Positions 6,601 through 9,600 of a stretch of DNA of 19,068 nt are shown here, in pieces (the first letter of the stretch is position 1; the number at the start of each line of letters is the position of its first letter). The position numbers are program-made. The stretch is taken from IMG/VR virus record IMGVR_UViG_2529293141_000023. The stretch is one strand, 5' to 3'. Source of the DNA: a virus. Lineage: Duplodnaviria; Heunggongvirae; Uroviricota; Caudoviricetes.

Positions 6601-9600
6601 ACCAGTAATAAAGCCATTTCCACATGTTCTAAAATCAATCCTATACACATTTCTATACACATTTAGCAGGCGCTTGATGACTTACTCAGGCAAATATTTA
6701 CCGGAATTTTTCCGGTTATCCCCTATGAAGCTGGTGGGCTTTACCTGTTTTTATCCGACTGTGTCACATAACTTTTGTTCCGGCATGATAAAATCGTCTG
6801 GTCATGTCCATTACTCATTGTTGACCTCTTGTTGTGTTTCTTTGGTGGCATGCCGTAGTGTTATCGCACTACGGTTTTTTTTCCCTCAAACTGAAATGGA
6901 TTTTTTCCGGTAATCACACTTCCGCCTGATTCATCTGTGTACCCAATGTGTGGTAAGCACCTCATACAGCAAACGAGGCAATCGGTATTCTGCTCCTTCA
7001 TGGCGTTTTTAGCGCTGTGGTGAATAACAGAATGACGGAACGATAGCCTATGGATACTCACGACAAGATACCACCAGCATATTCATACTCCCCGCAACCA
7101 GTACCGGAAGCCTGGAAAATGCGATTCAGCGCTAACAGTGCGTGGTTCTTCACCGATGATTTAACCGTGGTTGATGCCTGGCTAAAGGCCCACAGCGACG
7201 GCGTGGAGGTTGTACCGCTGTTTTGTGGCTCTGACAGTGACGGTAAGCGGGATACCGCATTTGAGGAGGTGTGCGCGGCTCTTGCCCGTATGCTGCATAT
7301 GCACCGCTTGTTACTTGAGAAAACAAGATACCAGGAACATGTTACTGACCCTGAATGTCTGCGGGAGCTCCACGAAGCCCCAATACAGGCGCTAAATATT
7401 CTGGTTAAACACAAACTGTCCTGACCGTGTCATGGAGGCCTGCACTTTTTGTCCAGGTCTCCCGATTCCCATCCGGTCCTCCGCCCATCGAATTTTAAGC
7501 CGCCTGTAAGCCTGTATGACGTTTTCCGGTGAATGCTCGCCCCGATAGTGAACATTGCGCCAGAGTGCGATTTATCCCCATTGCTGTGGATGTTTGAGCG
7601 TGAGCGCTGGTAACTGGTTAATGAGGTCGTGCCTGTGCGCTTGCACTTAACGGGCAACCGTGGGAGATGTGGGGGGATTTTACGAAATTTTCGTAATTTC
7701 CCTTTCCTTGTTCCGGCGGGGCTAATTCTCGCGATTCGCGATAATTAAGTTTAATCAATGGCCTGTAGTGATTATTTAATACATTGTGCTGGGGAGGGTT
7801 ACGAAATTTTCGTAAGCCAGCCTTCCTTGTTCCGGTGGGGGAAGGTGTGGTCATTATGACCATCCCTACGGTAATGATGATTCACGCTTTGCTAAAGGTA
7901 TTACGAAAATCATAATACCTTCTGCTGGTGGTGTCCGGCTTGTTCGTGGCTAATCACTCCCTCCATACCTGGCTTTTTCCGGTTAACCTTTAATCAGGCT
8001 GGTGGGCTTTACATGCCCTTGATCACCATAATGATGATTCAGGTATGCACCTTTTCCCCCAACGGGGTAAAAGCTCCAACTGTAACGATGTTCGTTATGG
8101 TTGCCTCGATGGTCTGAGTGGTCATTATGACCATTCAGGGTGCACCGTCCTTTGTCTCGTGGCATAATTATCAGGCGATTACGTTTTTCATGATTGATTG
8201 GCAAGCCGTATTTCTCCACCGCAGTTTCCTCATGACTGCGGTTTTTTTATGCGCGTTATGCCGTCACTGAATCGCGCTCAACATACCGATCCATCTCCAG
8301 CTTCACATCCAGCATCATCAACATGCCTTCAACAACCCCCTCCGCTTTGTGAAGGCGTTTACCTATACAGGTGTCAGAGCACCCATGTTTCCGTGCCAGC
8401 GCCATGAACGTCTCCCCCAACACGTAATAATCAACCAGCAAGTCATGCAGATCGCGATTGTTCCGGTAAAGACGGGCTATGCACCCGCATATCACCATCG
8501 CATCATCGTCACAGCACTGTGAGCGTGATGTTATCTTTGCCGGAATAATCCCCTTAAATCCTGCGGCAACGGATGACCAGGTCACATTCTCGCGATTATT
8601 TGCCGCCCACGCTCCCCAGCGTTCCAGAACCTGCTGAATATCACGCATCAACAATCACCTCGTAATAGCTGTGGTTACATACCCGTAATTCAGGGATGCA
8701 CTGGATGAAAGTTAAACTACGAAAATTTCGTAGCTTGTGACTGTCTTTCAGCCAGCTTGTTAACAGTCCTCAGAAGTGAGGAATGTAGCCAGCGCAATTT
8801 TGCGTTTGCGGTCTCCTCAAATTGAGGTTTCCGAAAATATCAGTAGGTTAGGCCAAAGCTCAAAAATGAGCTTTGTAACAATATCAGCCAGTTAACGCCG
8901 TCAGCTACCCGGCTCAGAATTGAGCCGCCTTTTAATCAACAAGTTACCGCCGTAACCGCTCCGGCTTATGCCACTGGTACGGGGGCGCGTTCTGGCGTTG
9001 CTCCTGCCGTCTCCTGACCACCATATGTTCCACCGTGTACAGCGTGCTTAGAAAAAACCCCAGATTCGTGGTTTTTCTCCGGCTCTTTTTGCGACTCGTT
9101 TAAAACCAGTCACAGAGTCGCTTAAAGCTACTCAGTTCGACACCATCACGTCACATCAGCCTGATTTTCAGCGCTCACGCTGTCCGGCTGCGTGGCCTCC
9201 TGTTTGCGCTGGCGTTCTCTCTGCTCTTCAATCATGAGGATTAACTCGCGTTCCTCCTGCTCTTCAATAATCCCGTGAATTATCTCTGTTGGTGAACGTT
9301 CGGTCATCGGCCCTCCTGTGTGTCACTGTTTTGGTGTCAATGTCACTGTTACGGCGTCACCGTATTTTGCCCAAATCAGGCAAAATTGCTTACCCGAATC
9401 CGGTAAATTTGCGCGCTTTTTCGATCATCGCGTATCGGTTTCGTTTTGCGCGGCTGTTGCGTTTCGTTTTGCGCATTTTTTTGCGCACTTTTTCCGGTGG
9501 CCTTTCCCCCTGCAAGCCGCGTCATATCTGGCTTTGCTCTGTTTGTCTGTGTGATCGATTTTGTGATCGGTTTTATGATCGATTTGCGCACTTTTTTGCG

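Follow-up and report, generated by a model that had tools for sequence, protein, structure and literature searches.

A small acidic reading frame in an Escherichia coli phage satellite as the probable 5' relic of a disrupted PHROG 1561 gene

The virus record IMGVR_UViG_2529293141_000023 (Caudoviricetes) is a stretch of 19,068 nucleotides, referred to here as the window. Between its genes for PerC and a Q-family antiterminator lies a 53-codon open reading frame (ORF) followed by a stop codon, on the minus strand at positions 9146-9307. A sequence-only reading of the window had presented this ORF as an unannotated reading frame with a near-perfect ribosome-binding site at ideal spacing, situated in an otherwise non-coding region and possibly encoding a small regulatory or anti-defence peptide. 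The question raised by this locus is whether such a well-formed small frame is a gene in its own right. The analysis reported here indicates that a gene of the PHROG 1561 family was disrupted here, and that the ORF, as its 5' part, is most probably a decaying relic that can still be translated. Both the protein (in RefSeq) and the family (in PHROG) had already been catalogued; what is new is the recognition that this allele is a frameshifted and rearranged fragment.

The ORF begins with the ATG at 9305-9307, ends with the TGA at 9146-9148 on the minus strand and encodes MTERSPTEIIHGIIEEQEERELILMIEEQRERQRKQEATQPDSVSAENQADVT, as described in the sequence-only reading. The Shine-Dalgarno sequence AGGAGG (9312-9317, minus strand) was located 4 nt 5' of the ATG; the claimed ribosome-binding site is therefore present, but its spacing is somewhat shorter than the optimum rather than ideal. 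Five occurrences of AGGAGG-N3-9-ATG were counted in the window against an expectation of 0.88, a number reached in none of 200 shuffles, and the four matches other than that of the ORF (three distinct AGGAGG sites) all end on the starts of listed window ORFs. Because the motif is enriched and otherwise falls on ORF start codons, the start of the ORF was regarded as a genuine initiation site. The repeated block IIEEQEERE/MIEEQRERQ was traced, by a repeat search of the window, to a 36-nt (12-codon) tandem duplication on the minus strand at 9209-9271 (IEEQEERELILM / IEEQRERQRKQE), whose copies at 9209-9235 and 9245-9271 are 81% identical. The peptide was also confirmed to be strongly charged: it counts 14 acidic (D/E) and 6 basic (K/R) residues, and has a pI of 4.4 and a net charge near -8. 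The description as unannotated was wrong, since an identical protein, WP_000140205.1, is annotated in RefSeq as "hypothetical protein" where E. coli 2015C-3121 has the homologous site. The exact 53-aa sequence occurs on at least 1000 contigs.

The window holds 54 ATG-initiated ORFs of at least 53 aa, so the length of the ORF is uninformative by itself, and the ORF was judged to be coding, now or formerly, because of its homology. Against phrog_1561, a 93-position profile of unknown function, the ORF itself gave a borderline match (E = 0.0077, 17.4 bits) restricted to its residues 31-52 and profile positions 17-38, which is less than a quarter of the profile. Its homology to the family was established by DNA collinearity with an intact gene. 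An intact gene of 106 aa is present in metagenome contigs whose genes are arranged as SSB-ProQ-PerC-[gene]-Q, and its residues 28-106 match the profile at E = 1.3e-26; for comparison, the 93-aa gene of the satellite EcCICFT073 matches it at E = 3.9e-54. The intact orthologue (for example at loci L009-L014; protein P0205, NCBI EFA6264501.1) was found on 282 contigs, including E. coli ED1a (CAR09465.2, with a longer annotated start), and it also lies between PerC and Q. It shares with the ORF the Shine-Dalgarno region and the first 40 codons, which are 87-90% identical, acidic repeat included. Past these 40 codons the intact gene continues as ...NYARVVAEVMRRDGIELNGQDCLVIRTRVLDMLAARQKREQRQSAAPYQWKTPERLRR and runs on through the conserved core to a YQWKTPERLRR tail, whereas the window allele ends at codon 54 and has its centre replaced. 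The conserved part of the family reads NYARVVAEVMRRDGIELNG..IRTRVL..YQWKKPERLRR; in the ORF the core is deleted or replaced and the C-terminal motif is out of frame. The position of the ORF agrees with that of the family, in the post-origin zone of a satellite of the integrase-alpA-primase type and followed by units made of a TAAC..TGAT box and a hairpin. Since the core and the tail motif are missing in frame, the ORF is a fragment of a family member and not a functional member; it is not a small gene of its own but the 5' part of one of 93-106 aa.

The lesions of the window allele were located by base-level DNA alignment with the intact gene, and all features described in this paragraph lie on the minus strand. 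Two deletions, of 12 nt and 5 nt, fall at 9146-9165; the shorter one converts GCTGAGGTGATGCGCCGTGATGG into GGC-----TGATGTGACGTGATGG. Together they shift the frame and bring the TGA at 9146-9148 in frame. Past the frameshift, some 20 nt of parental sequence persist, so that the segment 9127-9148 still reads RDGVELS.. in the +1 frame (compare RRDGIELNG in the intact protein). The centre of the parent gene, from about 9005 to 9126, is occupied by unrelated DNA with no homology to the intact gene. This DNA includes a fragment of a KilA-N gene at about 9018-9093 (EKNHESGVFSKHAVHGGTYGG), recognised by its matches to phage KilA-N genes, with 86-90% identity over 68-76 nt to genes of HK620 (hkbK), cdtI and Stx phages; the fragment is in the same frame as the ORF, with stop codons between them. 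Homology to the parent gene restarts at 9004 (...CCGTACCAGTGGCATAAGCCGGAGCGGTTACGGCGGTAA) and reaches the original stop codon at 8944-8946 (..PYQWHKPERLRR*), out of frame with the ORF. The last 20 or so codons of the parent gene (8944-9004, ..QEQRQNAPPYQWHKPERLRR*) thus remain and match the family motif YQWKKPERLRR. The description of the surroundings as otherwise non-coding is only partly right, as the flanks carry, besides iterons, these out-of-frame remnants and the KilA-N gene fragment.

Relatives of the ORF were grouped into 34 protein clusters, without exception from E. coli and with lengths of 29-90 aa, which have the first 40 or so residues in common, end in at least three unrelated C-terminal tails and contain the 12-residue repeat once, twice or four times. 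Conservation of the frame at the same position in related elements, to which the sequence-only reading had looked as a check, was found for codons 1-40: between PerC and Q, the start codon and this frame are kept in 14 distinct alleles, bar one that is interrupted by a nonsense mutation of codon 31. The alleles of other strains are broken in various ways. The 57-aa allele has the 5-nt deletion only, the 60-, 63- and 68-aa alleles have a large internal deletion, the 90-aa allele has a GAA-to-TAA nonsense mutation, and the 45-aa and 77-aa alleles result from loss and gain of the repeat; the 30-aa allele, present on 20 contigs, has its nonsense codon 31 on a frameshifted background. To judge from their sequences, the lesions in different strains are independent, and such repeated disruptions in the acidic-repeat sublineage fit a dispensable accessory role. 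Variants in codons 1-40 were counted among 11 distinct alleles with two repeat copies. There were 18 non-synonymous and 11 synonymous changes, distributed as 5, 8 and 16 over the first, second and third codon positions, and this third-position excess is a coding signature. When the variants were divided, those also present in intact alleles numbered about 10 non-synonymous to 8 synonymous, and those private to disrupted alleles about 8 to 3, to be compared with a neutral site ratio of about 4.2:1. The substitutions private to broken alleles look near-neutral.

Based on these data, it is quite probable that the ORF is the still-translatable beginning of a decaying gene, and its history reads as follows. 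Enterobacterial PICI-type satellites (PICI, phage-inducible chromosomal island) carry a PHROG 1561 gene of 93-106 aa after the replication module. In the lineage of the window, the N-terminus of this gene grew by the 36-nt tandem duplication; the gene then lost 5 nt, and 12 nt more in the window allele, which put it out of frame, and foreign DNA including the KilA-N fragment took over its centre. Only some forty promoter-proximal codons stayed in frame, and their strong Shine-Dalgarno sequence and start are a legacy of the parent gene. Provided that a post-origin transcript exists, its translation probably yields an acidic peptide of 53 aa, predicted to form one long helix at residues 6-38 and to end in a disordered tail. 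This peptide is probably inert because the conserved helical hairpin and the basic C-terminal tail are missing; what the ORF retains is the variable N-terminus, the least conserved part of the family. The gene structure and its lesions can be read directly from the alignments; the loss of function is inferred. The DNA of the ORF may now serve chiefly as the 5' part of a structured leader that continues through the hairpin array into Q. Transcription probably reaches the ORF from upstream, since no convincing sigma-70 promoter candidate was found in the upstream region and the DNA 5' of the Shine-Dalgarno sequence is a mosaic across alleles. Directly 5' of the Shine-Dalgarno sequence, at 9321-9359, there is a 20-nt direct repeat (TGTCACTGTTTTGGTGTCA / TGTCACTGTTACGGCGTCA) that could be a putative operator; it is confined to the upstream variant of the window type, and other alleles have unrelated sequence there.

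The full-length members of the family give some indication of what was lost. Members of 93-94 aa are present in an O157 satellite (L003, after a capsid gene, E = 2e-53), in Nissle 1917 (WP_000133395.1) and in EcCICFT073 (WP_000133413.1). The latter two homologues lie in the post-origin zone, and the same box-and-hairpin units come after them. These canonical members are full length and differ from the acidic-repeat type in a non-repetitive N-terminus, MTEAEILGLIRRVAGI.. The family is narrow: a search of 1.84 billion representative proteins gave 37 clusters (50% identity), of which 8 are shorter than 70 aa. In E. coli it is common, and 717 of the 5426 complete genomes contained DNA that matched it. 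A tblastn search of phage genomes with a 94-aa member returned a single weak match in a Klebsiella phage; on these sequence matches, PHROG 1561 is a family of satellites and not of phages proper. AlphaFold2 modelled a full-length member as three helices with a mean predicted local distance difference test (pLDDT) score of 78.8; the score exceeds 90 at residues 31-70, which belong to a hairpin made of helices 29-46 and 53-83. A Foldseek search of this model against the PDB gave nothing at E < 1, and the function can thus not be inferred from the fold. No matches to the parent family were found in Pfam, NCBIfam, PADLOC or by sequence search of the PDB, and none to the ORF itself in Pfam, NCBIfam or PADLOC. 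Specifically, PADLOC recognised no defence component in the ORF, in its intact orthologue or in the CFT073 member (the search did not extend to a dedicated anti-defence library), and the 94-aa member had no sequence or fold match in the PDB. The regulatory or anti-defence role proposed from the sequence is thus left without support. A literature search on the accession, the PHROG number and the C-terminal motif found no paper.

Published experiments on EcCICFT073 bear on the role of the full-length gene. A derivative in which c1504-c1507 had been replaced by cat was still transferred at 1e6-1e7 transduction-forming units (TFU)/ml (PMC10460865), and when the post-origin genes were cloned, phage lambda was blocked by c1503 (rppA) only (PMC6739421). 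The replaced interval very probably contains the 93-aa gene, with the old tag c1504 assigned to it by gene order. If this tag mapping holds, induction, packaging and transfer under laboratory conditions do not require the 93-aa gene. The RppA and RppC (redirecting phage packaging) proteins of E. coli PICIs (PMC6739421) are likewise encoded by small genes in the post-origin zone, and rppA is the immediate neighbour of the family member in EcCICFT073. Rpp proteins have 144-153 aa and a TerS-like winged-helix N-terminal DNA-binding domain, and the structure of RppC has been solved (PMC6739421), so that a sequence search of the PDB should cover it. An identity of the parent family with Rpp was considered and rejected, as length and sequence differ and neither the PDB sequence search nor Foldseek (E < 1) gave a match.

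In EcCICFT073 the family member directly follows rppA, 65 nt from an inverted cosN, whereas the window satellite has no lambda-type cosN; the lone match in the window, with two mismatches and inside PerC, is at chance level. Two perfect inverted lambda-type cosN sites flank rppA in EcCICFT073 (L037:2559-2574 and 3294-3309), presumably the published cos1 and cos2, and the PHROG 1561 gene, which begins past the second of them, is the nearest gene to that packaged DNA end. By analogy with the direction of lambda packaging, the PHROG 1561 gene of cos-type PICIs may enter a new cell ahead of all others. It might be supposed that the parent family is an establishment or anti-host factor and that, once the core had gone, the window lineage retained the acidic N-terminal helix, which the 36-nt duplication, at varying copy number, had lengthened, as a stand-alone micro-protein such as a charge-mimic decoy. 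We consider this highly improbable. The locus draws attention to an uncharacterised family beside the cos and att (attachment) end of PICIs.

Several facts weigh against a mere relic. The start codon, the Shine-Dalgarno sequence and the frame of codons 1-40 are retained in nearly all alleles, with variation rich in third positions. The 53-aa allele is very common, and truncated forms outnumber intact ones of the acidic-repeat type by about 36 to 2 among complete genomes, an abundance that could reflect either retention or clonal oversampling of Shiga toxin-producing E. coli (STEC). Moreover, with about 11 private variants the comparison with neutrality is of low power, called-protein databases favour intact small ORFs, and the equation of c1504 with the 93-aa gene comes from gene order alone. 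Such retention, an overall dN/dS of about 0.4, the wide spread of the 53-aa allele and the confidently predicted helix would all suit a functional truncated product, in which the acidic N-terminal helix acts as a micro-protein, for instance by binding, as a decoy or in a dominant-negative manner, the partner of the full-length protein or some protein of the helper phage. This is nevertheless unlikely. The synonymous excess comes mainly from variants that also occur in intact alleles, the private ones being close to neutral; one allele is cut at codon 31 in 20 contigs; the repeat drifts among one, two and four copies; the C-terminal tails differ arbitrarily among alleles; no other part of the family is as poorly conserved as the N-terminus; and no defence or anti-defence family was matched. 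Given the small counts, the acidic helix may yet have some residual function.

It could also be argued that the ORF acts in cis as a leader ORF, whose translation modulates the folding of, or the transcription through, a structured leader of about 490 nt and thereby controls Q. The ORF and Q share a strand, no intrinsic terminator was predicted on the minus strand between them, the leader is unusually structured (folding z = -3.5), and the arrangement from ORF to Q is conserved in related satellites. However, the stop codon lies anywhere from 138 to 321 nt from the start across alleles with Q unchanged, a PemK toxin gene and another gene separate the ORF from Q in L028, the parent family also occurs in satellites that lack Q (EcCICFT073, Nissle and L003), and no attenuator-like alternative pairing involving the ORF was found. 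Control of Q by the ORF is accordingly very unlikely in our judgement. That the ORF is nothing but a chance frame in non-coding DNA behind a Shine-Dalgarno-like sequence might be entertained in view of the many window ORFs of this length, but its probability is negligible: the idea is refuted by homology, as the ORF can be aligned collinearly with intact genes of 106 aa and 93 aa, both of which match the family profile, and the third-position excess and the AGGAGG-ATG motif, otherwise found at the starts of listed ORFs, argue in the same direction. With a relic of the PHROG 1561 gene as the preferred explanation, the case is a caution for micro-protein screens of mobile elements, where a small ORF can look well formed, have a strong ribosome-binding site and yet be what remains of a longer gene.

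The DNA between the ORF and Q has features of its own. From the stop codon of the parent gene towards Q, an array of units, each with a TAAC-N4-TGAT(A)TT box and a hairpin of 7-10 bp, extends over 8700-8946 on the minus strand. The number of units varies from two to five per allele and the stems vary, with a constant architecture. On the plus strand, the boxes at 8838, 8882 and 8934 match the consensus of integration host factor (IHF), WATCARNNNNTTR, which has 10 matches in the whole window against 1.4 expected. The units are possibly attP-arm sites (for IHF or integrase) or an RNA element. The same units were seen at the att-proximal end of EcCICFT073 (L037:3653-3850), and two boxes are present at window positions 6522-6552, beside the att core of the neighbouring island. 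No Rfam family reached its gathering threshold in the window, and the matches below threshold in 8200-9800 are of the chance kind. The Q-family antiterminator itself (8256-8654, minus strand; PF06530, E = 2.5e-50) begins about 490 nt 3' of the ORF. The zone around the ORF is also an insertion hotspot in other strains, with an IS110-family transposase 5' of the 90-aa allele (L016:2414-3610) and the PemK-family toxin gene between the small ORF and Q at L028:2781-3215.

By its gene layout, the element that carries the ORF is a PICI-type phage satellite. Only window positions 6564-15759 and 16514-18625 match E. coli 2015C-3121, where they correspond at 99.4-99.7% identity (blastn) to an element of the chromosome, and RefSeq annotates the 99.7%-identical element with an integrase, a helix-turn-helix (HTH, AlpA-like) protein, an Icd-like protein, a DUF927 primase and SSB. 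The element has a tyrosine integrase, an AlpA-like regulator, a primase/replicase with adjacent iterons and an incomplete set of virion genes, within about 12 kb. All genes of the following series lie on the minus strand: the tyrosine integrase (17815-19068), followed in satellite order by the AlpA-like HTH protein and Icd/Rha-like proteins, the DUF927 primase (12749-14887), SSB (11188-11637), a ProQ/FinO protein (10724-11029) and PerC (10441-10740). Beyond Q in satellite order there is a divergent ORF of 124 aa. PICIs and helper-embedded satellites have been divided into four zones, for integration, Bro, replication and late functions (bioRxiv 10.1101/2022.07.18.500453), and the layout of the element fits this plan. 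Iteron-like arrays with a 12-nt period, which have no strand, occupy about 9400-9650 directly 5' of the ORF, with repeats of the TTTTGCGCA type at 9455-9509 and 9570-9636 and three copies of TGTGATCGATTT at 9550-9585. They are probably the replication origin of the satellite. A 79-aa "hypothetical protein" called by RefSeq spans the iterons (9376-9615), and this call is probably spurious. The lambdoid Q (8256-8654) stands in the satellite together with PerC and the ProQ/FinO protein (10441-11029), and near-identical copies of this Q/PerC/ProQ region occur in genomes of strains named STEC. A cross-talk of the satellite with late transcription of Stx prophages or with regulation of the locus of enterocyte effacement (LEE) is conceivable.

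The satellite ends at about 6564-6587, a position that overlaps a 24-nt att fragment of tRNA-Gly. As this fragment (6564-6587) is common to the satellite and to a second, capsid-bearing island (window 664-6587), the two islands are arranged in tandem; no complete tRNA gene is present in the window. Window positions 1-6587 belong to a different island, in which an IS3-family transposase fragment (1-633), a decoration-like gene (2802-3185) and an E-type major capsid gene (3133-4209) were recognised. In strain LR-29-1 this left island is located at tRNA-Gly.

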